38,731 nt of DNA from Gemmatimonadales bacterium (GTDB lineage: Bacteria; Gemmatimonadota; Gemmatimonadetes; Gemmatimonadales; JACORV01), in assembly GCA_050012655.1 (NCBI GenBank), contig JBEKGT010000001.1, forward strand, positions 1 to 38,731, written 5' to 3'. Numbering within the stretch: position 1 is the stretch's first letter; the number at the start of each line of letters is the position of its first letter. Position numbers and translations under genes: made by a program. Shown here piece after piece: positions 10,050-33,476 of this stretch. Under the pieces are notes generated by a model that saw nothing but the letters and a program-made list of their open reading frames with translations, did not search any database and was not told the origin of the DNA.

Positions 10050-11017
10050 CGCTCCTGCGCAGTCCCCGGAACCCGATCCTCACCCGGGCGGACATCCCGC
10101 CCGTGCTCCCGGACTTCACCGACGTCACCTCGGTCTTCAACCCCGGCGCCATCCACGACGGCGGCCGCACGCTGCTGATGCTCCGCGTGCAGAGTCGGGG
10201 CCGCCGCACGGCCCTCGTGATGGCCGAAAGTGATGACGGTGAGCGGTTCACGGTACACGGTTCGCCGGTGGTCTTCCGGGGGGTGGAACGGGCCGGTGAG
10301 AAGCTCCACCACCTCTACGACCCGCGCCTCACCCGCATCGGCGACACGGTCTACGTGCTCTTCGCCGCCGACACGGAGACCGGATGCAAGCTCGGCGTCG
10401 GCTCCACCCAGGACTTCGAGACCTTCGACTTCATCGGAGTCGGCAGCCACCCCGACATCCGCAACGGCGTCCTCTTCCCTGAGAAGATGGGCGGCCGCTT
10501 CGTGCGGCTCGACCGCCCCAACCGCTCGGCGCTCGAGGGGGGCGTCACGTCGGGGGACGAGATCTGGCTTTCCACCTCCGACGACCTGGTCGAGTGGAAG
10601 CCGGAGAGAGCGGTGATGGGTGGACGCTGGCACTATTGGGATGAGCGCATCGGCTCGGGCCCGCCGCCGGTGAAGACGCGCCAGGGGTGGCTGCATCTCT
10701 ACCACGGCATCGCGACCCACTTCGCGAGCGTGAGCATCTACCAGGTCGGCGCCGTCCTCCTCGACCTCGCCGACCCGTCGAAGGTGCTGGCGCGGAGCTG
10801 GAACAACATCCTCGAACCGCGGGAACTGTACGAGCTGGTGGGCCAGGTGCCGAACGTCGTCTTCCCTGGCGGGATGGTCGTCGAGTTGCACGACGAGGAC
10901 GGCTTCGCCCTCCCCGAGTCCCGGGTGCAGGTGTACTACGGGGCGGCCGACACCTGCGTGGGGCTCGCGACGACGACGATCAGGGAGCTTCTCGGAGCGT
11001 GCGATGGCCCGGCGTAA
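10046..11017 (+). CDS. Glycoside hydrolase family 130 beta-mannoside phosphorylase (cytoplasmic)
   Basis: GTG at 10046 overlaps the symporter stop (GTGA). There is no signal peptide. GH130-type motifs are present: RNPILT, VFNPGAI, YDPRLT, IRNGVLFPEK, LDRPN, WDERIGSGPPPVKT, GWLHLYHG and YYGAADT. Confidence 0.8.
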   Translation: MTLLRSPRNPILTRADIPPVLPDFTDVTSVFNPGAIHDGGRTLLMLRVQSRGRRTALVMAESDDGERFTVHGSPVVFRGVERAGEKLHHLYDPRLTRIGDTVYVLFAADTETGCKLGVGSTQDFETFDFIGVGSHPDIRNGVLFPEKMGGRFVRLDRPNRSALEGGVTSGDEIWLSTSDDLVEWKPERAVMGGRWHYWDERIGSGPPPVKTRQGWLHLYHGIATHFASVSIYQVGAVLLDLADPSKVLARSWNNILEPRELYELVGQVPNVVFPGGMVVELHDEDGFALPESRVQVYYGAADTCVGLATTTIRELLGACDGPA

Positions 11018-13862
11018 GCCGAGCACGCCCGCGGCGTCGCCCTGGCCCGCCCCCGCTTCGGGCGATGCGCCACGGGCCTCGGACGCGCCGCCCGCCGACC
11101 CGCGTCTCGTGTTCATCGTCTCGCACACCCACTGGGACCGCGAGTGGTACCTGCCGTTCCGGCGGTTCCGCGTCCACCTCGTCGAGGTGGTGCGGCAGGT
11201 GCTCGACGCGCTGGAGCGGGGCGGGGAGTTCCGCCACTTCCTCCTCGATGGCCAGGCCATCGTCCTCGAGGACCACCTCGCTATCCGGCCCGAGGATGAG
11301 GAGCGCATCCGGTCGCTCGTGCGGGCGGGGAAGCTCTCCATCGGTCCGTGGTACGTCCTCCCCGACTGGTTCCTCGTGAGTGGCGAGGCGATCGTCCGCA
11401 ACCTCCTCATCGGCCACCAGGCGTGTGGCCGGTTCGGGCCGGTGCAGAAGGTCGGCTACATGCCCGACTCCTTCGGGCACGTCGCGCAGATCCCGCAGAT
11501 CCTTCGCCGAGCGGGGATCGAGTCGTTCATCTACACGCGGGGCAACGACGATGCGGCCGACGCGTGCGGTGGCGAGTACCGCTGGGAGGCCCCGGACGGC
11601 AGCGACGTCCTCGCCGTGAACCAGTACCGCGGCTACGACGCCGCCGCAGGGCTCGGCTTCGACAGCTACTGGGCGGCGCACACGCGGCGCGCGGTGGATC
11701 CGGCGCTGGCGGTGGAGAAGGTGCGCGCACTCTTCGAGGGGATGGCGGCGCGGTCGAAGGGCGACGTTCGCCTCCTCGGCAACGGCGGCGACCACCTCCC
11801 GCCCCAGCAGGACTTCGGCGCCGTGATCGGCGCGCTGCGTTCCGCCTTCCCGCGCACTGAGTTCCGGCACACCGGCCTGGCGGACTTCGTCGAGGCGGTT
11901 CGGGAGGCCGGCACCGCCACGGCGCGCTACCGCGGTGAGCTGCGCGGGGGGAAGGACCAGTTCATCCTCCCCGGCGTCTGGTCGGCGCGGACCTACCTCA
12001 AGCAGATGAACGACGAGGCGGAGAACCTCCTCGAACGCTTCGCTGAGCCGGTGTCTTCGTATCTCCACTTCCGGCGCGGGAAGCCGTATCCCGCGGGCGC
12101 CCTCGCCGACGCGTGGCGGCTCCTCCTCCAGAACCACCCGCACGACTCGCTCTGCGGCTGCTCGACCGACGAGGTGCACCGGGAGATGGTGCCGCGGTTC
12201 GCCGGCGTCGTGGACACGGCGGAGCAGGTCCTCACCGACCAGATGGTGGGCCTCGCACCCACCTTCGCCGCCGACCCCGCGGAGGATGCGGCCATCGTGC
12301 TCGCGGTGATGAACCCGCTCCCCGCGGTCCGCAGCGAGGTAGTCGAGCGGCTCGTCGTCGTCGGGCCGCCGGGCGTGGATCCGGAGCGGCTCGAACTCGT
12401 GGACGCGGCCGGCCGGCCCGCCCCCTTCGCGGTGACGCGGGCGTGGTGGGTGGAGCGCTTCTGGGGGATAGACTACCGGAGCGCGCCCTGGGGGGAGCGG
12501 CAGGGCGCCCTCTTCGCGTCGTACCGCGAGGAGTTCGCGCAGCGCATCCTGCGGCGCGGGCCGGGCGGCGGGAAGAACGACCAGTTCCTCGAGATCCGGT
12601 TCCTCGCGCGCGACCTCCCGGCCCTCGGCCACGCGATCTACCATCTGCGGCAGCGCGCGGTGGCCGCCACGCCGCCGGCCGCTGCCGTCGGCACGGTGGT
12701 GGCCTCGGGCGACACCCTCGAGAACGACCTCGTGCGCGTGCGCCTCCACGGCGACGGCACCCTCGACCTCACGCACAAGCCGTCCAGCCGCACCTACGCG
12801 GCCCTCAATCTCCTCACCGACACCGAGGACGTGGGGGACGAGTACGACTACGCTCCCGCGTCCGAGTCGGAGTCGGTGACGGCGGCCGGCTCGCCTGGCG
12901 AGGTCCGGGTGGTGGAGGCCGGCGGCCTGCTCGGCCGGCTCGAGGCGTCGTTCGCGTTCCGGCTTCCCGAGTCCATCGGGAGGGGCCGCAAGCGGCGCGC
13001 GCGGCGGAAGGTGGCATGCCCCGTGACAGTCCGCCTCACCCTGTGCGATGGCAGCCCACTGGTCGATATCGAGACTGTTCTCGAGAACCGGGCCAGGGAC
13101 CACCGTCTCCGTGCGCTCTTTGCCGCCGGCGCGGCGACGGACACGGTCATCTCCGACGGCCACTTCTACGTCAACCGCCGGCCCGTGGACATCCCGGCGC
13201 ATCCCGACTGGCTCCAGCCCCCCGCGGACACCCACCCGCAGCGGGAGTTCTCGCTGGTGGAGGACGCGCGCGGCGGCGTGGCGGTGCTCGCGCGCGGCCT
13301 GCCGGAGATCGCGCCGGTCCGTGACCCCGCAGGACACGCCGGCTTCGCGCTCACCCTGCTGCGCGCCGTGGGATGGCTCTCGCGCGACGACCTCCCCACC
13401 CGCCGCATGCGCAACGCCGGCCCCACCCTCGCCACGCCCGGTGCGCAGTGCCTCGGCACGCAGCGCTTCCGGTATGCCCTCCTGCCGTACGCCGGGGACT
13501 TGCTGGCGGCGGGCGTGAAGACGTGGAGCGAGCGCTGGCGCACGCCGCCGCTGGTGGTGCAGGGCGTGGACGACGGCCACGTGCCCGGCGGCACGGGGCT
13601 GTTCGTGCTCCGGGGGGAAGGCGTGCACGTGAGCGCGGTGAAGAAGCACGAGGCGCGCGACACGCTCGTGGTGCGGCTCTGTAATCTCGCCGACGCGCGC
13701 CGCGAGGCGGCGCTGCGCTTCGGGCCTCCGGTGGCCGGGGCGTGGCGCGCCGACCTCCTCGAAGAGCGGCTGTGCGCCTTGATGATGGCAGGCGGGCACG
13801 ACGTCGTGGTGGAACTCGGTCCGCACGAGATCGCGACGCTGGAGGTCGAGTTCGGCAGCTGA
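11004..13862 (+). CDS. Glycoside hydrolase family 38 alpha-mannosidase (cytoplasmic)
   Basis: It has the N-terminal GH38 signature FIVSHTHWDREWYLPF, a length of ~950 aa typical for bacterial GH38 enzymes, and no signal peptide. It overlaps the GH130 gene by 14 nt. Confidence 0.85.
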   Translation: MARRKPSTPAASPWPAPASGDAPRASDAPPADPRLVFIVSHTHWDREWYLPFRRFRVHLVEVVRQVLDALERGGEFRHFLLDGQAIVLEDHLAIRPEDEERIRSLVRAGKLSIGPWYVLPDWFLVSGEAIVRNLLIGHQACGRFGPVQKVGYMPDSFGHVAQIPQILRRAGIESFIYTRGNDDAADACGGEYRWEAPDGSDVLAVNQYRGYDAAAGLGFDSYWAAHTRRAVDPALAVEKVRALFEGMAARSKGDVRLLGNGGDHLPPQQDFGAVIGALRSAFPRTEFRHTGLADFVEAVREAGTATARYRGELRGGKDQFILPGVWSARTYLKQMNDEAENLLERFAEPVSSYLHFRRGKPYPAGALADAWRLLLQNHPHDSLCGCSTDEVHREMVPRFAGVVDTAEQVLTDQMVGLAPTFAADPAEDAAIVLAVMNPLPAVRSEVVERLVVVGPPGVDPERLELVDAAGRPAPFAVTRAWWVERFWGIDYRSAPWGERQGALFASYREEFAQRILRRGPGGGKNDQFLEIRFLARDLPALGHAIYHLRQRAVAATPPAAAVGTVVASGDTLENDLVRVRLHGDGTLDLTHKPSSRTYAALNLLTDTEDVGDEYDYAPASESESVTAAGSPGEVRVVEAGGLLGRLEASFAFRLPESIGRGRKRRARRKVACPVTVRLTLCDGSPLVDIETVLENRARDHRLRALFAAGAATDTVISDGHFYVNRRPVDIPAHPDWLQPPADTHPQREFSLVEDARGGVAVLARGLPEIAPVRDPAGHAGFALTLLRAVGWLSRDDLPTRRMRNAGPTLATPGAQCLGTQRFRYALLPYAGDLLAAGVKTWSERWRTPPLVVQGVDDGHVPGGTGLFVLRGEGVHVSAVKKHEARDTLVVRLCNLADARREAALRFGPPVAGAWRADLLEERLCALMMAGGHDVVVELGPHEIATLEVEFGS

Positions 13863-16689: not shown

Positions 16690-16697
16690 GACGGGCG

Positions 16698-17732
16698 ATG
16701 GCCACCACCGCATCGAAGCCCGCCGGCGCCCCGACCGTGCTCGCGCCCCCGCGCATCATCGGGCTCGACGAGATCCGTGCCGCGCTCCGGGACGTGGATC
16801 TCCTCCCCGGCATCGAGGCGGCGTTCGTCGCCTACTCTTCCGGCCGAGCCGTGGTGCCGCCGGTTGGGGAGCTGCTCCTCCCCGACGTCCAGGCCGACGT
16901 CCACATCAAGTACGGCTACATCGCCGGCGAACCGTACTACGTCATCAAGATCGCGTCGGGCTTCTACCAGAACCCCGAGAAGGGCCTCCCCTCGAGCAAC
17001 GGGCTGATGCTGGTCTTCCGCCGCGCCACGGGGGAGCTGGCCGCCATCCTCCTCGACGAGGGGCTCCTCACCGACCTGCGGACCGGCGCCGCGGGCGCGG
17101 TGGCCGCGAAGCACCTCGCGCCGAAGACGGTGCGCCGCATCGGCATCGTGGGATCGGGGACCCAGGCGCGCCACCAGCTCCGGATGCTCAAGGCCGTCAC
17201 GCCCTGCCGCGACGTCGTCGCCTGGGGCCGCCACCCCGACCGGCTGGCCCGCTACCGTGACGAGATGGCTGCCGAGGGATTCACGGTCGCGATCACCACG
17301 GACGTCGGTGACGTGATGGCCTCGTGCGACCTCGTCGTGACGGCCACGGCCGCGCGCGCGCCCCTCCTCCTGCGCGACCAGCTGCGCCCCGGGATGCACA
17401 TCACCGCCCTCGGCGCCGACTCGCCGGGGAAGCAGGAGCTCGATCCGCTGATCCTCCGCCGGGCGGACGTCGTCGTGGCGGACAGCATCAGCCAGTGCCT
17501 CGAGCGCGGTGAGATCGCCCACGCCGTACGCTCGCGCTGCCTGCGCCCCGACGACGTGGTGGAGCTGGGCGCCGTCATCGCCGGGACGGTCCCCGGGCGC
17601 ACGAGTGAGGACGACATCACCGTCGCCGACCTCACCGGGGTGGCGGTGCAAGACATCGAGATCGCGCGCACGGTGCTGGAGGCCGTGGAGGCCCGAGAGC
17701 CCACCCCGGAGAGGGCGGGAGACGGACCGTGA
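16698..17732 (+). CDS. Ornithine cyclodeaminase / mu-crystallin family protein
   Basis: I trimmed the ORF to ATG 16698, 9 nt after the upstream stop. It has the Rossmann segment RIGIVGSGTQARHQL and overall similarity to the OCD/mu-crystallin family (DLRTGAAGAVAAKHLA, ITALGADSPGKQELD). Confidence 0.85.
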   Translation: MATTASKPAGAPTVLAPPRIIGLDEIRAALRDVDLLPGIEAAFVAYSSGRAVVPPVGELLLPDVQADVHIKYGYIAGEPYYVIKIASGFYQNPEKGLPSSNGLMLVFRRATGELAAILLDEGLLTDLRTGAAGAVAAKHLAPKTVRRIGIVGSGTQARHQLRMLKAVTPCRDVVAWGRHPDRLARYRDEMAAEGFTVAITTDVGDVMASCDLVVTATAARAPLLLRDQLRPGMHITALGADSPGKQELDPLILRRADVVVADSISQCLERGEIAHAVRSRCLRPDDVVELGAVIAGTVPGRTSEDDITVADLTGVAVQDIEIARTVLEAVEAREPTPERAGDGP

Positions 17733-18157
17733 ACCGGCGCGAGCGGCTGGCGGTGGCGGTGGTGGCGGTGGGGGTCGCGACGGTGGTGGTCGCGCGGCGC
17801 GCCGCGCCGCCGCGGGAGATTCACTGGCAGCGAGCCGACACCGGTGCGGCCGCGCTCCCGCCACCGCCGCTCGGCGCAGCTGGCTCCGCTGCGGCGCCCG
17901 CCGGAGCGGCCCCGCGCGTCCTCCGCGTGGACAGCTCGGGATGCGCCCCCGTCGCGGAAACGCCATTCGCCGGAGTGATGTCCCTCGACTCCGTGGCGCT
18001 CACCGGCGGCATCCCGGTCGAGAACCTGATTCGGGGTCTCCATCTCCCCGATGACGTCCCGCGCTCCCGCCCGCTGAGCGAGATGATGAAGGCCTACCGC
18101 TTCACGCTTCAGGATGTGCAGCGGGTGGTCGAGGACTACCTGAAGCACTGCGAGTAG
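17729..18157 (+). CDS. Hypothetical membrane-anchored protein
   Basis: GTG at 17729 overlaps the OCD stop (GTGA). It has an N-terminal TM segment (LAVAVVAVGVATVVV), an Ala/Pro-rich linker and a C-terminal helical segment, GIPVENLIRGLHLPDDVPRSRPLSEMMKAYRFTLQDVQRVVEDYL. I could not assign a family. Confidence 0.45.
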   Translation: MNRRERLAVAVVAVGVATVVVARRAAPPREIHWQRADTGAAALPPPPLGAAGSAAAPAGAAPRVLRVDSSGCAPVAETPFAGVMSLDSVALTGGIPVENLIRGLHLPDDVPRSRPLSEMMKAYRFTLQDVQRVVEDYLKHCE

Positions 18158-18163
18158 GGCTGC

Positions 18164-19273: not shown

Positions 19274-19370
19274 CACGATGGCATCCCCATCGTCGAGGAG
19301 ACGGCCACTGACCGTTGCGGGGGCACCGTGTAGTTTGGAGCACGCGCGGGTTCTTCGGAAGGGAGCCGGC

Positions 19371-19895
19371 ATGATCTGGCCGTTCGCCCACCTCTGGGAC
19401 GGAGCGCCGACGTTCGAGGCGTTCGTGGCGGCGTCGAAGGCGCACGGTGAGCTGTGGGCCTCGGTGCGCCGGACGGCCCGCGTCCCCGACACGCTCGTCG
19501 CCGAGGCCGCTGCCCTTCGCGGAGGGTTCCGCCTCGTCGCCATCGTCGAGGACTGGTGCGGCGACGCCGGCAACACCGTCCCCGTCATCGCCGCCCTGGC
19601 GGAGCGTCTGAGCGGCACCGAACTCCGCCTCGTGTGCCGCGACGAGCACCCCGAGTTGATGGACCGCTACCTCACCGGCACGTCGCGCTCCATCCCCATC
19701 GTCGTCGTCCTCACCGACGCACTGGAGGAGCTGGGCCACTGGGGCCCGCGGCCGGCCGTGCTCCAGGCGTGGGTGATGGAGAAGAAGCGCGCCGGTGCGG
19801 GGAAGGAGCTCTACCCCGAGATCCGTCGGTGGTACGCGCAGGACAAGGGAGAGAGCACCCTGCGCGAGATCATCCAGATCATGGCAGGGGCCTAG
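19371..19895 (+). CDS. Thioredoxin-fold family protein (Thioredoxin_9-like, single-Cys WCGD motif), cytoplasmic
   Basis: ATG at 19371 has GGAAGGGAG upstream. The motif is LVAIVEDWCGDAGNTVPVIAAL. There is no signal peptide. Confidence 0.75.
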   Translation: MIWPFAHLWDGAPTFEAFVAASKAHGELWASVRRTARVPDTLVAEAAALRGGFRLVAIVEDWCGDAGNTVPVIAALAERLSGTELRLVCRDEHPELMDRYLTGTSRSIPIVVVLTDALEELGHWGPRPAVLQAWVMEKKRAGAGKELYPEIRRWYAQDKGESTLREIIQIMAGA

Positions 19896-19969
19896 CGAGC
19901 GCCTCCGCCGCGGCGATATACTCTAGAGAATCACTCATCATTCCGTCCCCATTGCAGGAGGGTGTTTCG

Positions 19970-20572
19970 ATGCGGATGCTCCCCGCCGCCGCCGTCCTGG
20001 CCGCCACGGCCCTGGTCGCGCCGGCGACGCGCGCCCATGCCCAGGCCGCTTCGGCGCCGCAGCCCCCGCTCGAAGTCGGGGCCGTCGCCCCGGACATCGT
20101 GCTGCCGGGCGCCACGCGCTTCGGCGTGCTCCAGCAGCCGGTCCGACTGACCGACTACCGCGGGAAGACGGTGGTCCTCGCGTTCTTCTTCCGCGCACGG
20201 ACGCGTGGCTGAACGATCCAACTGAACGCGTACCGTGATCAGTACGCGCAGATCTTCAGGAGCGGCCGGAACGTGGTGCTGATCGCCATCAGCGCGGATC
20301 CGGACACGATGCAGGCGGCGTGGGCGCGGGAGTCGGAGTTCCCGTTCCTCTTCGCCAGCGACACCGGCTCGGTGGTGGGGCGGCAGTACGGCGCTTTCCT
20401 CCAGCGGCCGAACCTGGTCCTCGACAACCGCAACCTCTTCGTCGTAGGGCCGGATGGCCGCATCGCCTACCGCGCGGTGCCCTTCCGCGAGGTCGACCCG
20501 ACGGCGTACACGGAACTCGGCGCCGCTATCGCGCGCCTCCTGCCGGCGGATTCGACACGGGGCGGGAACTAG
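19970..20572 (+). CDS. Secreted peroxiredoxin (AhpC/TSA-redoxin family) with an in-frame UGA (codon 81, 20210-20212) at the peroxidatic position; probable selenocysteine peroxiredoxin
   Basis: ATG at 19970 has AGGAGGG upstream. The signal peptide is MRMLPAAAVLAATALVAPATRAHAQ. Track ORFs ending at 20212 and starting at 20273 are in the same frame (20273-19454=819=3x273). The joined reading is GKTVVLAFFFRARTRG-[UGA]-TIQLNAYRDQYAQIFRSGRNVVLIAISADP. This fits the Prx PxxxTxxC spacing with UGA in place of Cys. A SECIS-like hairpin starts 10 nt downstream. Confidence 0.7.
20222..20259 (+). promoter_or_regulatory. SECIS-like RNA hairpin directly 3' of the in-frame UGA
   Basis: The structure is CUGAA-CGCGUAC-[CGUGAUCA]-GUACGCG-(CAGAUC bulge)-UUCAG. 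It has a perfect 7-bp upper stem, a 5-bp lower stem and a G-containing 8-nt apical loop. It begins 10 nt after UGA 20210-20212. Confidence 0.6.
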
Positions 20573-20649
20573 GGCATTCCCTCTTCGGGGACCCCCTTGA
20601 TCGAAGGGCCGTCCTTCCGTCCGGACACCCACAAGCGCTGAAAGACCAT

Positions 20650-20676
20650 CCCTGCCGGGAACCCGACCCGGCAGGG
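20650..20676 (+). terminator. Perfect 10-bp hairpin downstream of the peroxiredoxin gene (candidate terminator, no U-tract)
   Basis: CCCTGCCGGG (20650-20659) pairs with CCCGGCAGGG (20667-20676) around a 7-nt loop. It lies about 78 nt after the stop at 20570-20572. Confidence 0.4.
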
Positions 20677-20722
20677 AGTGTATGGTGGGTATATCCGACA
20701 TAATCGGTCCCCTTTGAGATAG

Positions 20723-21007: not shown

Positions 21008-21583
21008 TCAGCGCAGCGCGCGCGCGATCGCCGCTTCGAGGTCCTGGTCGGGGACGATGCCGGTGTACGCCACCTTTCCCTGCCGGTCGAGGAGGACGAC
21101 GTAGCTCGTGGCCGGCGTATCGAACGCGCGCACGGCGCTGCCGTTCCCGTCCCAGAGCACCCGGCCTGCCGGCAACGGATGCGCGTCCACGTGCCGCTTC
21201 ACCGACGCCCTGGTCTGGTTCACCCCCACGGCGACGACCACGAAGTCCACCTGGCTTCCGTGGCGCTGGAACGCCGCCCTCATCCGCGGCTCGAGGGCCG
21301 CGCAGTTGGTGCACCAGGTGGCCCAGAACTCGAAGAGCACCGACTTGTGCCCCCCCCCGACGAACGGCGCGAGGTCCGCGGGCCGGCCGTCGAGGTCCTC
21401 GATCGTGACCGGGTGCACGGCGGCGCCGGCGGCGAGGCCGACCTGCTCGTCCTGCGCGCGTGCCGCCCCCGGCAGCACCGTCGCCGCGAAGCACAGTGCC
21501 ACCGTGAGCAAGAGGATGCGCCCGGAGTCGCCTCTGACCTCTGACCTCTGACGACTGACGGCTGCCGGCCGCAGGCGTGTCAC
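21008..21583 (-). CDS. TlpA/ResA-like periplasmic thiol:disulfide oxidoreductase (thioredoxin fold, CxxC)
   Basis: It has the WATWCTNC active site and the hydrophobic anchor ILLLTVALCFAATVLPGAA. The proposed start is GTG 21583, which overlaps the ccdA stop (GTGA). An internal TTG or GTG near 21510 is also possible. The rest of the 406-aa track ORF overlaps ccdA out of frame. Confidence 0.8.
   Translation of the reverse strand: MTRLRPAAVSRQRSEVRGDSGRILLLTVALCFAATVLPGAARAQDEQVGLAAGAAVHPVTIEDLDGRPADLAPFVGGGHKSVLFEFWATWCTNCAALEPRMRAAFQRHGSQVDFVVVAVGVNQTRASVKRHVDAHPLPAGRVLWDGNGSAVRAFDTPATSYVVLLDRQGKVAYTGIVPDQDLEAAIARALR
21531..21558 (-). repeat. Heptanucleotide tandem repeat: (TCAGAGG)x3 perfect plus one degenerate unit (minus-strand reading)
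   Basis: The plus strand reads CCTCTGA CCTCTGA CCTCTGA CGACTGA. The repeat lies in the 5' end or leader of the tlpA-like gene. Confidence 0.6.
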
Positions 21584-22344
21584 ATCACCCTCCCCATCTG
21601 CACGAAGTAGTACTCCGCCATCCCGAGCAGGACGACGCCCGCGAGCCGCTTCACCCACACCATCCACCGCCCCGCCCGCGGCAGCGCCGCCACCGTCCCC
21701 GAGAAGAGACCGACCACCACCAGCAGCGCGGTCATACCGAGCGAGAAGACGAACAGATACGCGAACCCCAGCGCCGCGCTCCGCGTCGTCCCCACCCACG
21801 TCAGCACCGCCGCGAACGCTGGCGCGCCGCACGGCGCCGCGACGAGGCCGGAGGTGGCCCCCATCGCGAACACCCCCGCATACGATCCGCCGGCGAACCG
21901 CCCCGCCCACGCCATGAGCCGCTGCGGCGCCTCGACGGGGAAGACGTCGAGGAGTGCTAGCCCGAACACCAGCAGCAGGTTCCCGATGGCGAAGCGCGCC
22001 CACGGGTTGGCGCTCACCGTGCCGAAGAGCGAGCCCGTCATCCCCGCGAGGAGGCCGAGGGTGGCGTAGAGGAGCGCGAGACCGAGGACGTAGGTCAGCG
22101 TGAGCGCCACCCGGCGGCGCCAGGCCACCCCGCTGTCCGCCGCCTGGTCGCTCGGTGCGTCCGTGCGTCCGTGCGTCTGTGCGCCTGCGAGGATCCCGGC
22201 CGTGATCGGGATCATCGGGTAGATGCACGGCGTGAGGCTCGTCGCGAGGCCCGCGAGGAAGAGTGCGCCGAAGGCCGCGACCGGGTGGCCGGAGAGGCTC
22301 GCCGAGACCTGCGCGAGGAGGACGGTGGGTATGGCGAGGGTCAC
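21580..22344 (-). CDS. ccdA: Cytochrome c biogenesis / thiol-disulfide electron transporter CcdA (DsbD transmembrane-domain family)
   Basis: GTG start at 22344. It has about 6 TM helices and the two conserved Cys motifs, LTPCIYPMIPI and VAAPCGAPAF. Confidence 0.85.
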   Translation of the reverse strand: MTLAIPTVLLAQVSASLSGHPVAAFGALFLAGLATSLTPCIYPMIPITAGILAGAQTHGRTDAPSDQAADSGVAWRRRVALTLTYVLGLALLYATLGLLAGMTGSLFGTVSANPWARFAIGNLLLVFGLALLDVFPVEAPQRLMAWAGRFAGGSYAGVFAMGATSGLVAAPCGAPAFAAVLTWVGTTRSAALGFAYLFVFSLGMTALLVVVGLFSGTVAALPRAGRWMVWVKRLAGVVLLGMAEYYFVQMGRVM

Positions 22345-31344: not shown

Positions 31345-32050
31345 CGTCTCGGTGGTCGTGCCGGTCTACAACGAGCGGGAGAACCTCGCGCCCCTCCTGG
31401 GCGAGATCGCGGTCGCGCTCGGCGGCCGGGCGTACGAGGTCGTCGCCGTGGACGACGGCTCCACCGATGGGAGCGCCGAGGAGCTGGTGGCGCTCCGTGC
31501 GAGGTACCCAGCGCTGCGGGTGGTGCGGTTCGCGCGGAACGCCGGGCAGAGCGCCGCCTTCGCGGCCGGCTTCCGCTCGGCCAGGGGCGCGGTGCTGGTG
31601 ACGATGGACGCCGACCTCCAGAACGATCCCGCCGACGTCCCGGCCCTCCTCGAGGCGCTGGAGCGCTCCGGCGTGGACGCGGCCGTCGGCTGGCGGATGA
31701 ACCGCCGCGACACCGGCTGGAAGCTGGCGCAGAGCCGCATCGCGAACGGCGTGCGGAACTGGCTCAATCACGAGACGATCCGCGACACCGGCTGCTCGCT
31801 GAAGGCGTTCCGCCGCGAGGCCGTGGCGGACATCCCGTGGTTCACGGGGATGCACCGCTTCCTCCCGACGCTGGTCAAGATGCGCGGCGGGCGGGTGGTG
31901 GAGGTGCCCGTGCACCACCGGCCGCGGCGCTTCGGCTCGACCAAGTACGGGATGTGGAACCGGGTCTTCCGCGCCCTCGCGGACGCCCTCGCGGTGCGCT
32001 GGATGCAGCGGCGCGCCCTCCGCTACGAGATCCGGGAGATCGTCGGATGA
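31328..32050 (+). CDS. Family 2 glycosyltransferase (polyprenyl-phosphate sugar synthase type: Dpm1/ArnC-like)
   Basis: Motifs VSVVVPVYNERENL, VDDGSTDGS and DADLQNDP are present. The ~240-aa size is typical of this type. It overlaps the upstream gene by 17 nt. Confidence 0.85.
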   Translation: MTTAPDVSVVVPVYNERENLAPLLGEIAVALGGRAYEVVAVDDGSTDGSAEELVALRARYPALRVVRFARNAGQSAAFAAGFRSARGAVLVTMDADLQNDPADVPALLEALERSGVDAAVGWRMNRRDTGWKLAQSRIANGVRNWLNHETIRDTGCSLKAFRREAVADIPWFTGMHRFLPTLVKMRGGRVVEVPVHHRPRRFGSTKYGMWNRVFRALADALAVRWMQRRALRYEIREIVG

Positions 32051-33105
32051 CACGCATCAAGCGGCTCGACCCGTCCGTCTTCCACCTCCCCGTCGAGCGG
32101 ATGCGGGAGGGCTACTACAGCGACAAGTACTTCGTCCGCGCCCGCGAGATCCTCGTCGCCGACGGCCACCGGCCGCGGGTGACGATGCAGGTCTTCGCCA
32201 AGACCCATGCCTTCCTCGGCGGGATGGACGAGGCGGTCGCGATCCTGAAGCTCTGCGCGCTGGAGTGGAAGGACCTCGTCGTCCACGCCCTCTTCGACGG
32301 CGACGAGGTGGAGCCGTGGGAGACGGTGATGCTCATCGAGGGGCCGTACGACGCCTTCGCCCACCTCGAGACCCTCTACCTCGGCGTGATCGCCCGCCGC
32401 ACCAAGGTCGGCACCAACACCCGGCGGGTCGTCGAAGCGGCACGGCCCAAGGAAGTGATGTTCTTCCCGGCGCGGCACGACCACTGGCTGGTGCAGACGG
32501 GGGACGGCTGGGCCGCCCACGTCGCCGGCGCCATCGGCGTCTCGACCGATGCGCAGGCCTCGTGGTGGGGGAGCGAAGGGGTGGGCACCGTCCCCCACGC
32601 CTTCATCGCGGCCTACGGCGGCGACACCGTGCTCGCCACACGGAAGTTCGCCGAGCACATGCCCGAGAGCGTGCGGCTCATCACCCTGGTGGACTTCGAG
32701 AACGACTCCGTCGGCACCAGCCTCGCCTGCGCGCGGGCCCTCGGCCCACGGCTCTACGGCGTGCGCCTCGACACCTCCGAGACGATGGTGGATAAGTCGG
32801 TCATCCCGCAGATGGGCTCCGCCAAGCCCACCGGCGTCACCCCGCAGCTCGTCCACAACGTCCGCGACGCCCTCGACCACGAGGGGTTCTCAGGGGTCAA
32901 GATCATCGTCTCCGGCGGCTTCGACGTGGAGAAGATCCGCCGCTTCGAGGAGGCGGGGGTGCCGGTGGACGCCTACGGCGTGGGCTCCTCCCTCTTCACC
33001 GGACGCTACGACTTCACCGCCGACGTGGTGCTGGTGGACGGGAAGCCGTGCGCCAAGGCGGGGCGGAGCTACCGCCCCAACCCGCGTCTGGAGCGGGTGA
33101 GCTAG
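32047..33105 (+). CDS. Type II phosphoribosyltransferase, nicotinate phosphoribosyltransferase-like
   Basis: ATG at 32047 overlaps the GT2 stop (ATGA). It resembles the NAPRTase/QPRTase family: YYSDKYFVRAREIL, the N-terminal alpha/beta domain, and barrel segments GTVPHAFIAAYGGDT and GVRLDTSE. Confidence 0.75.
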   Translation: MTRIKRLDPSVFHLPVERMREGYYSDKYFVRAREILVADGHRPRVTMQVFAKTHAFLGGMDEAVAILKLCALEWKDLVVHALFDGDEVEPWETVMLIEGPYDAFAHLETLYLGVIARRTKVGTNTRRVVEAARPKEVMFFPARHDHWLVQTGDGWAAHVAGAIGVSTDAQASWWGSEGVGTVPHAFIAAYGGDTVLATRKFAEHMPESVRLITLVDFENDSVGTSLACARALGPRLYGVRLDTSETMVDKSVIPQMGSAKPTGVTPQLVHNVRDALDHEGFSGVKIIVSGGFDVEKIRRFEEAGVPVDAYGVGSSLFTGRYDFTADVVLVDGKPCAKAGRSYRPNPRLERVS

Positions 33106-33274
33106 GGGCCGGGGCGGGGTCTTGCGCGGATCCGGAGAGTGCATATTTATTCATCGGCAAGAATGACTATGCAACCCCGAACCTGCCGCCAGGAGCCGCC
33201 GATGACCGCCGCGAAGAAGCCCGCGCCCAAGGACCGGCCCCCCGAGGCGTTCGGGATCTAGGAGCCTGCGGCCG

Positions 33275-33372
33275 TCAGAGGTGAGAAGTCAGGGGTGAGA
33301 GGGGACGGGGGACGGGCGGTTCCGTCTCCCGTCCCCTCTGACCTCTTACCTTCACGCGTCACCTCCCTCACG
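33275..33372 (+). repeat. Heptanucleotide-periodic, internally palindromic array (about 14 units)
   Basis: The left part reads TCAGAGG TGAGAAG TCAGGGG TGAGAGG GGACGGG GGACGGG, followed by CGGTTCC. The right part reads GTCTCCC GTCCCCT CTGACCT CTTACCT TCACGCG TCACCTC CCTCACG. It lies in the 370-nt spacer between the PRTase-like and nicotinamidase-like genes. Confidence 0.6.
33298..33339 (+). terminator. 18-bp (one mismatch) hairpin formed by the centre of the heptamer array; candidate terminator
   Basis: GAGGGGACGGGGGACGG pairs with CCGTCTCCCGTCCCCTC around the 6-nt loop GCGGTT. The sequence after it is T-containing (TGACCTCTTACCTTCAC). Confidence 0.55.
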
Positions 33373-33476
33373 TTCTCTTCTGTAGTAGTCCCCGCTAGGC
33401 TCCTCCTGGCATGCCCATTGCGTTGCCCCCGGCGCGTCGGTGGGCGACATTTCTCCTGCCGCCGGTGGGAGGCAGC

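Follow-up and report, generated by a model that had tools for sequence, protein, structure and literature searches.

Does a UGA codon in the middle of a peroxiredoxin gene end translation or encode selenocysteine (Sec)? The question was raised by a gene on the forward strand of contig JBEKGT010000001.1 from a Gemmatimonadales bacterium (assembly GCA_050012655.1), of which a stretch of 38,731 nucleotides was analysed as a whole and is referred to here as the window. The reading favoured here, with a probability of roughly 0.88, is that the gene encodes an exported, Cys-free 1-Sec peroxiredoxin of the BCP/AhpE-like 1-Cys type, predicted together with a Sec insertion sequence (SECIS). The decisive support is comparative, while the evidence offered by the single sequence is modest.

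Gene structure and active site

The TGA at 20210-20212 was the sole in-frame interruption of the plus-strand frame that runs from the ATG at 19970 to the TAG at 20570-20572. Translation of 19970-20572 gave 80 amino acids, the interruption, 119 amino acids and a stop. An initial annotation of the window had described two open reading frames (ORFs) in the same frame whose joined product is 200 residues long and whose halves are free of Cys, and each of these points was borne out: the ORF starting with GTG at 20273 is in frame with the one ending at 20212, the two halves are separate entries in the ORF list, and the translated 200-residue product contains no Cys at all. A scan of the window for in-frame TGA codons with coding-like base composition on both sides returned only this one. 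Public gene calls on a contig that carries the identical gene (L169, Logan SRR13021960) cut it into products of 80 and 99 amino acids, and many C-terminal fragments of 113-116 residues are present in databases, as would be expected from the fragmentation by gene callers that the same annotation had foreseen.

With a Cys placed at the TGA, the joined protein matched the Pfam families AhpC-TSA (PF00578; 79.8 bits against a cutoff of 26, E-value 2e-22) and Redoxin (E-value 1.4e-15). The UGA had been proposed to fall on the peroxidatic Cys, and in phmmer alignments its column did coincide with that residue in solved BCP and AhpE structures, namely 2ywn, 3hjp and AhpE 5id2/1xvw (..FTQVC.. against ..RTRG[U]..). 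In the same searches the Arg of the distal catalytic site was aligned with that of the solved peroxiredoxins (..AKRAVFVI.. against ..DNRNLFVV..). Inspection for the PxxxTxxC motif and the distal Arg found Thr78, the peroxidatic position (U81) and Arg154 in place and the Pro changed to Phe, a departure from the canonical motif already visible in the F-RAR-T-RG-U spelling of the initial annotation. At this site (20189-20191, codon -7 relative to the UGA) an aromatic residue was found in 145 of 147 Sec forms (Phe in 100, Tyr in 45). Pro was kept in 83/83 Cys-form homologues and occurred together with TGA only in loci L048 and L080.

Cys was absent from 146 of 147 Sec forms over the stretch examined, which extends from 45 codons before the UGA down to the stop, and 81 of 82 Cys forms contained only the peroxidatic one; the family is therefore of the 1-Cys/1-Sec kind. 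The position five residues after the peroxidatic site, where the resolving Cys of BCP is found, was Asn in the window protein and Asn, His or Asp in its orthologues, and never Cys. P0004, the nearest Cys homologue (69% identity by BLASTP and 64% in the alignment), stood in for the window protein when the fold was modelled. The AlphaFold2 model of P0004 had a predicted local distance difference test (pLDDT) score of 89.7, and its structure matches were peroxiredoxins only, including Bcp4 (3hjp) and AhpE (1xxu; template modelling (TM) score 0.88, root-mean-square deviation 2.3). Judged on this model, whose top Protein Data Bank matches were all peroxiredoxins, the family has the thioredoxin-like peroxiredoxin fold with the peroxidatic residue, here C81 of helix 79-90, in the first turn of helix alpha2.

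The claim of a signal peptide was also in agreement with the comparison, as the protein begins with a leader of the Sec-type (secretory) form and homologues have equivalent N-termini ending in ..A-x-A-Q. Export of the protein is predicted on this basis.

Conservation of the UGA among relatives

Two scans for related loci were made. A scan of genomes, with one genome per species, returned 80 loci that were nearly all from metagenome-assembled genomes (MAGs) of Gemmatimonadota (Gemmatimonadales, Longimicrobiales); the codon was found in 79 of the 80, and in every one it was TGA. A metagenome scan was seeded with an alignment of Cys forms, and despite this query 77 of the best 80 loci were TGA forms. 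The aligned codon was thus TGA in 157/157 located TGA-form loci, which comprised 147 distinct sequences with pairwise protein identities of 0.43-0.99. The initial annotation had proposed aligning the joined protein with its homologues and recording whether Cys or UGA stands at the site; the outcome was TGA in these 157 related loci and Cys in more distant homologues.

Protein searches returned two classes of relatives. The first consisted of full-length proteins of 190-200 residues with approximately 50-70% identity and a Cys at the site (83 proteins, with the pattern F-P-[RK]-A-R-T-x-G-C), while the second consisted of the many 113-116-residue C-terminal fragments, which were 80-95% identical and all began with M[NQ]AYRDQ. 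These fragments are genes severed at the same place by gene callers. In eight distinct Cys-form DNAs the Cys codon was TGC, and a rough neighbour-joining tree required at least seven switches between Sec and Cys in the family. One MAG contig (L031) carried both states in tandem, with a Cys paralogue (TGC, 4893) directly upstream of a Sec paralogue (TGA, 5494). The peroxiredoxin lineage is conserved across Gemmatimonadota and, among the named genome loci, almost confined to this phylum, largely in soil MAGs.

A pseudogene, in which a Cys codon has been turned into a stop by a nonsense mutation (TGC or TGT to TGA) and the hairpin that follows is coincidental, would need one base change from TGC and would be called as two fragments, as this gene is. 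The same TGA was found, however, in 157 loci of diverged species, and the half downstream of it, represented by protein fragments of 80-95% identity, keeps a coding type of evolution. Both halves evolve as coding sequence, with a proportion of synonymous differences (pS) of approximately 0.56, which is saturated, and ratios of nonsynonymous to synonymous proportions (pN/pS) of 0.33 upstream and 0.51 downstream of the UGA.

A conserved hairpin downstream of the UGA

A hairpin shortly after the UGA had been described in the initial annotation as CUGAA-CGCGUAC-CGUGAUCA-GUACGCG-(CAGAUC)-UUCAG at 20222-20259, and these letters were found as given. Its extent was upheld in part: the inner 7-bp stem-loop (20227-20248) was conserved, while the outer CUGAA/UUCAG stem was without support from covariation. 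The outer stem was rejected as a conserved feature: the outermost pair occurs in the window only, and 64 of 147 orthologues have a mismatch at offsets 15/46.

The inner stem is formed by offsets +17 to +23, counted from the T of the TGA, with +32 to +38, and a further G25-C30 pair is possible. Across the alignment 99.7% of the stem cells were paired, and six of the seven pairs were invariant or shifted only to G-U. The closing pair, which joins two wobble positions, was the variable one (CG in 76, UA in 38, GC in 6, AU in 1 and unpaired in 3). Its covariation score was reached by 0/500 shuffles, and all controls in which the pairing was slid collapsed. At least 22 independent changes of state were counted for this pair on a neighbour-joining tree, and the covariation therefore does not stem from one inherited event.

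Synonymous sites within the hairpin were frozen, which together with the covarying closing pair answers the question, posed in the initial annotation, of whether the hairpin covaries among homologues. Codons +6 to +11 read GCG TAC CGT GAT CAG TAC among the 147 sequences, with Ala encoded by GCG in 147/147, Arg by CGT in 145/147 and Asp by GAT in 143/147, and both CGT and GAT are non-preferred codons in this 71% G+C genome. Synonymous diversity was approximately zero in the hairpin codons compared to 0.5-0.6 at other invariant Ala, Val and Thr codons, and the mean pairwise pS was 0.028 in the hairpin compared to 0.55-0.57 in the flanks, an approximately 20-fold drop. Overall 21 of the 22 hairpin positions were essentially fixed across the sampled loci. 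The AYRDQ motif was also present in every fragment returned by the independent protein search.

Controls from the eight distinct Cys-form DNAs differed in these respects. None of the eight used CGT, the Arg codon being CGC or CGG in all of them, five of the eight used GAC for Asp, and the 3' arm was usually lost, with Ala changed to Glu, Ser or Pro. In the L031 tandem pair the frozen hairpin codons were seen in the Sec copy only. The closest Cys relative (P0004, L162:6240) keeps the full 7-bp stem (GCG TAC CGC GAT CAG TAC GCG) and has a single change in the loop; a recent switch from Sec to Cys may have left this stem behind as a fossil SECIS. Codon usage beside the UGA was also biased: Gln +3 (20219-20221) was CAA in 84% of Sec forms and CAG in 7/8 Cys forms, Gly -1 (20207-20209) was GGC in 91% and Thr +1 was ACG in 80% of orthologues. 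These codons may reflect a context effect on UGA recoding.

The fit to bacterial SECIS (bSECIS) elements was judged by comparing the hairpin with the published limits of the bSECISearch model of Zhang and Gladyshev 2005, as summarised in PMC13188914 (Fig. 2A). These limits are a loop of 3-9 nt, an upper stem of 4-16 bp, a G in the first two loop positions, a distance of 16-37 nt from the UGA to the loop and a minimum free energy (MFE) of at most -7.5 kcal/mol (PMC13188914 Fig. 2A). The element lies inside each of them, with an 8-nt loop (CGUGAUCA), a 7-bp stem, G at loop position 2 followed by U, a UGA-to-loop distance of 21 nt and an MFE of -10.5 kcal/mol (-7.8 to -13.8 kcal/mol among orthologues). 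This MFE was obtained for the 27-nt core, where it was lower than that of shuffled sequences (z = -2.85). Rfam searches of the window and of locus L015 at gathering thresholds returned no family.

Folded in a 71-nt context, the hairpin was no more stable than shuffles (z = -0.08), as a coincidental structure in a pseudogene would be, yet its synonymous sites are frozen and one of its pairs covaries. The initial annotation had named Cys-bearing orthologues without a hairpin, together with decay of the downstream half, as signs of a nonsense-mutated gene, an alternative that the conservation seen here excludes. Because the UGA, the hairpin and the coding type of evolution are all conserved across relatives, a pseudogene is excluded for practical purposes and is left with next to no probability. 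The hairpin at 20227-20248 is conserved as an RNA element and is linked to the UGA.

Decoding of the UGA

A conserved UGA with a downstream hairpin could also be read in ways other than as Sec. Recoding as a different residue, through hairpin-stimulated read-through by a near-cognate tRNA (Trp or Cys), a SelB-like route that inserts Cys, or reassignment of the code, would agree with the lack of Sec machinery genes in the window and the flanks searched and with three database proteins that show other residues at the site, W in the JGI protein P0003 and L in P0001 and P0002. The DNA behind the W of P0003 (L164) is TGA, however, and a Trp at the catalytic position would inactivate the enzyme, which has no redox residue elsewhere. 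TGA is an ordinary stop in these genomes, being the commonest one in the window (14 of 27 composition-supported ORFs) and the terminator of 49 of the 147 peroxiredoxin genes themselves, and the genetic code is therefore not reassigned. The spacing, the G and U of the loop and the stability of the hairpin fit the SelB-type SECIS model, and alternation of Cys and UGA among homologues is the classical signature of a selenoprotein (PMC13188914). We regard recoding to a residue other than Sec as quite unlikely.

A second reading would have termination at codon 81 as the intended outcome, yielding an 80-residue exported peptide or a restart four codons downstream, with the inverted repeat serving in regulation at the DNA or RNA level, for instance as an attenuator or as a palindrome bound by a protein. 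Codon +4 was ATG in 146 of 147 orthologues, and the perfect palindrome formed by the element could be read at the DNA level too. The window has CTG and not ATG at codon +4, however, and Cys forms conserve the Met of this codon to the same degree, which marks it as structural. If made on its own, the C-terminal piece would have neither signal peptide nor catalytic residue, and a single thioredoxin-like domain spans both halves. The element was found only with the TGA and at a fixed distance from it, Cys forms do not share its codon choices, and one G-U variant suits RNA pairing and not DNA symmetry. Intended termination is accordingly judged highly improbable.

Because the 22-nt element is near-invariant, it might suggest a divergent SelB/SECIS recognition code. 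The UGA and hairpin would then be decoded outside the canonical Sec pathway, either by a divergent SelB/SECIS pair with its own code or by hairpin-dependent insertion of Cys or another residue, which is considered very unlikely.

Searches were made for the Sec machinery, with the SelA, SelB and SelD proteins of E. coli serving as tblastn probes against all loci. Flanking DNA of the relatives amounted to 1.63 Mb in total and covered only approximately 10 kb on either side of each peroxiredoxin gene. No tRNA-Sec was found in the window, in 60 loci or in the full 1.63 Mb. A 99-nt ARAGORN prediction of type 'tRNA-???' with a four-base anticodon (L015:1836-1934, 1 kb downstream of the peroxiredoxin gene) matched no Rfam family and was set aside as probably spurious. 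The only hits of these probes, to the GTPase domain of SelB in four loci (L061, L062, L065 and L072), were rejected, being a CysN-CysC fusion followed by CysD. A CysN-CysC fusion combines the GTPase of sulfate adenylyltransferase with adenosine 5'-phosphosulfate (APS) kinase. In the subclade formed by these four loci the cysN-cysC fusion and then cysD stand directly after the Sec peroxiredoxin gene (approximately 10556-13800).

Several points weigh against the Sec reading or its details. The window protein has Phe in place of the motif Pro. Searches of the window and of the 1.63 Mb of flanks yielded no selA, selB, selD or tRNA-Sec; because these flanks reach only approximately 10 kb on either side, the negative is uninformative on the genomes. 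A literature search that combined Gemmatimonadota, Gemmatimonadetes or Gemmatimonas with selenocysteine or sel genes returned no relevant report in the library searched, and aerobic bacteria rarely keep selenoproteins (PMC13188914). The 8-nt loop is one nucleotide longer than the commonest bSECIS loop pattern, although inside the 3-9 nt limit. The peptide patterns used for retrieval included the AYRDQY region, and the amino acid invariance of AYRDQY is therefore partly a matter of ascertainment, while the synonymous invariance is unaffected. The assignment of a reductant, described below, comes from gene neighbourhood only. With these points considered, a Gemmatimonadota-wide, not-yet-curated clade of exported 1-Sec peroxiredoxins with a Pro-to-aromatic switch in the active site is much more likely than non-canonical decoding.

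Gene neighbourhood and proposed catalytic cycle

Downstream of the peroxiredoxin gene and convergent with it are genes for a TlpA/ResA-like thioredoxin-fold protein and a CcdA/DsbD-type electron transporter (Table 1). For the TlpA-like protein the NCBIfam matches to ResA, TlpA and StoA were all below cutoff. The CcdA protein scored best in NCBIfam against the DsbD portion of the model for the selenoprotein TsoB, although far short of its cutoff. Among 87 Sec loci with enough flanking sequence, a convergent TlpA-like gene was present in 49 and an adjoining ccdA in 40, and the pair was also found beside three Cys forms. This conserved neighbourhood suggests that the TlpA-like CxxC protein together with CcdA is likely the reductant of the Sec peroxiredoxin. 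The Thioredoxin_9-family gene upstream was adjacent to the peroxiredoxin gene only in the closest relatives and is probably outside the system.

In the proposed cycle, UGA81 would be read as Sec and not as a stop, the fit and conservation of the hairpin at 20227-20248 suggesting that it recruits SelB-GTP-Sec-tRNA(Sec). The loop of this hairpin starts at a distance of 21 nt from the UGA, and its second and third positions are GU. The pre-protein would be exported to the periplasm through its N-terminal signal peptide, where the selenolate, positioned by Thr78 and Arg154, would reduce peroxide and become a selenenic acid. Because the protein lacks a resolving Cys, its selenenic acid has to be recycled by an external dithiol. 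The genes nearby point to the TlpA-like dithiol for this step, and CcdA would keep the TlpA-like protein reduced.

Other features of the window

The search for a second selenoprotein gene, by scanning the window and all loci for in-frame TGA codons between coding-like stretches, found none. Fourteen further TGA candidates in the loci of relatives were rejected as neighbouring genes that share a frame. The remaining genes of the window were ordinary (glycoside hydrolases, an SSF transporter, AsnA, PPK2, RsgA, a Ser/Thr kinase and LeuRS), and two regions, 16690-18160 and 32050-33400, contained no ORF that passed the composition filter. Between the convergent genes is a G+C-rich palindrome with a T-rich tail on the minus strand.

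Table 1. Positions of the predicted selenoprotein gene, its parts and neighbouring features in the window
Feature	Position	Strand	Remarks
Thioredoxin_9-family gene, upstream	19278..19895	+	Pfam PF14595, E-value 1e-33; upstream in only 3 Sec loci; also in L169
Shine-Dalgarno-like GGAGG	19957..19961	+	8 nt upstream of ATG; start agrees with the 80-residue call in public contig L169
Selenoprotein coding sequence (predicted), 200-residue exported 1-Sec peroxiredoxin	19970..20572	+	Codon 81 is UGA; stop TAG at 20570-20572; same architecture in L001-L160
Predicted Sec-type signal peptide MRMLPAAAVLAATALVAPATRAHA	19970..20041	+	Predicted cleavage after AHA (MRMLPAAAVLAATALVAPATRAHA followed by Q), -3/-1 rule
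Active-site Thr, T78 of TxxU	20201..20203	+	Codon -3 is Thr in 141/147 orthologues; aligns with the PxxxTxxC Thr of 2ywn
In-frame UGA, predicted Sec codon, residue 81, peroxidatic position	20210..20212	+	TGA conserved in 157/157 TGA-form loci; aligns with the peroxidatic Cys
Lower stem, 5' half, CUGAA	20222..20226	+	Pairs with 20255-20259; partly conserved, no informative covariation
Predicted SECIS upper stem-loop, conserved	20227..20248	+	5' arm 20227-20233 CGCGUAC; loop 20234-20241 CGUGAUCA; 3' arm 20242-20248 GUACGCG
Lower stem, 3' half, UUCAG	20255..20259	+	Partner of 20222-20226; same partial conservation
Catalytic Arg, R154 (..DNRNLFVV..)	20429..20431	+	Invariant column in alignment; aligns with the Arg of 2ywn and 3hjp
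G+C-rich 11-bp palindrome	20649..20677	.	Resembles a terminator of the minus-strand operon
TlpA/ResA-like exported thioredoxin-fold protein, WCTNC motif, candidate reductant	21008..21538	-	Start approximate; Pfam Redoxin, Thioredoxin, AhpC-TSA
CcdA/DsbD-type transmembrane electron transporter	21580..22344	-	Pfam DsbD_TM, E-value 5e-43

Implications

If the Sec reading is true, an exported antioxidant enzyme would make routine use of Sec in a phylum whose members are usually seen as aerobic soil bacteria. Such use would be contrary to the general view that selenoproteins are seldom retained by aerobes (PMC13188914). Gene callers systematically misread the gene, either as pieces of 80 and 99 amino acids or as the C-terminal fragments of 113-116 residues, and because its score is far below that required by NCBIfam's only Sec peroxiredoxin model, annotation pipelines probably miss the selenoprotein. 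Many Gemmatimonadota genomes would carry this overlooked selenoprotein, which would also be abundant in soil metagenomes, and recognising it would correct a widespread mis-annotation. The tight linkage of Sec with loss of the 'universal' Pro would offer a natural experiment on how a peroxiredoxin pocket adapts to selenium, and the near-invariant SECIS with its freely covarying closing pair would provide a compact, well-defined element for recoding studies.

Comparison with known systems

Periplasmic pathways that run from CcdA/DsbD to TlpA/ResA feed extracytoplasmic thiol peroxidases and methionine sulfoxide reductases. The window resembles these systems in that a CcdA-type membrane protein and an exported CxxC protein are encoded beside an exported redox enzyme; here, the link comes from gene neighbourhood alone and the pairing is absent in about 40% of loci.

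The best sequence and structure matches were to BCP/PrxQ and to the AhpE 1-Cys peroxiredoxins (S. solfataricus Bcp4 3hjp, S. tokodaii 2ywn and M. tuberculosis AhpE 1xxu), with which the window protein shares the conserved Thr, the peroxidatic position, the Arg, the character of a small monomer- or dimer-type peroxiredoxin and the lack of a C-terminal resolving Cys. Those enzymes use Cys and are cytoplasmic, whereas the window protein is predicted to use Sec and to be exported. Atypical 2-Cys BCP proteins have a resolving Cys five residues after the peroxidatic Cys, which is missing from the window protein and its orthologues. The score on the NCBIfam BCP model NF006960 was 46.1 bits against a cutoff of 140, although BCP/PrxQ is the closest family by sequence and by fold.

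Compared to bSECIS elements in general, among which the published view is of little shared sequence, the element described here is unusually invariant. Its placement is that of the SECIS of known Sec peroxiredoxins, a hairpin inside the coding sequence straight after the UGA, and the window protein likewise shares with PrxU and other Sec peroxiredoxins the AhpC/TSA fold, Sec at the peroxidatic position in T-x-x-U and the existence of Cys homologues. PrxU of Eubacterium acidaminophilum was reportedly described by Sohling and colleagues in 2001. The window protein does not belong to that equivalog, as it scored 47.6 bits on the NCBIfam model NF040737 (peroxi_PrxU) against a cutoff of 270, and it differs from PrxU in being BCP/AhpE-like, in its signal peptide and predicted export and in having no other Cys. 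A further difference is the Phe or Tyr that replaces the Pro of PxxxTxxU in 145/147 members of the window lineage. Sec peroxiredoxins (Prx, PF00578, TxxU) are an established selenoprotein family that ranks among the top bacterial ones (PMC13188914, PMC5029168), with 91 genes in 78 organisms (PMC5029168) and with experimental demonstration in Eubacterium acidaminophilum (PMC13188914, PMC5029168). Because TxxU Sec peroxiredoxins are already known, the predicted selenoprotein of the window would represent a new lineage of a known kind.

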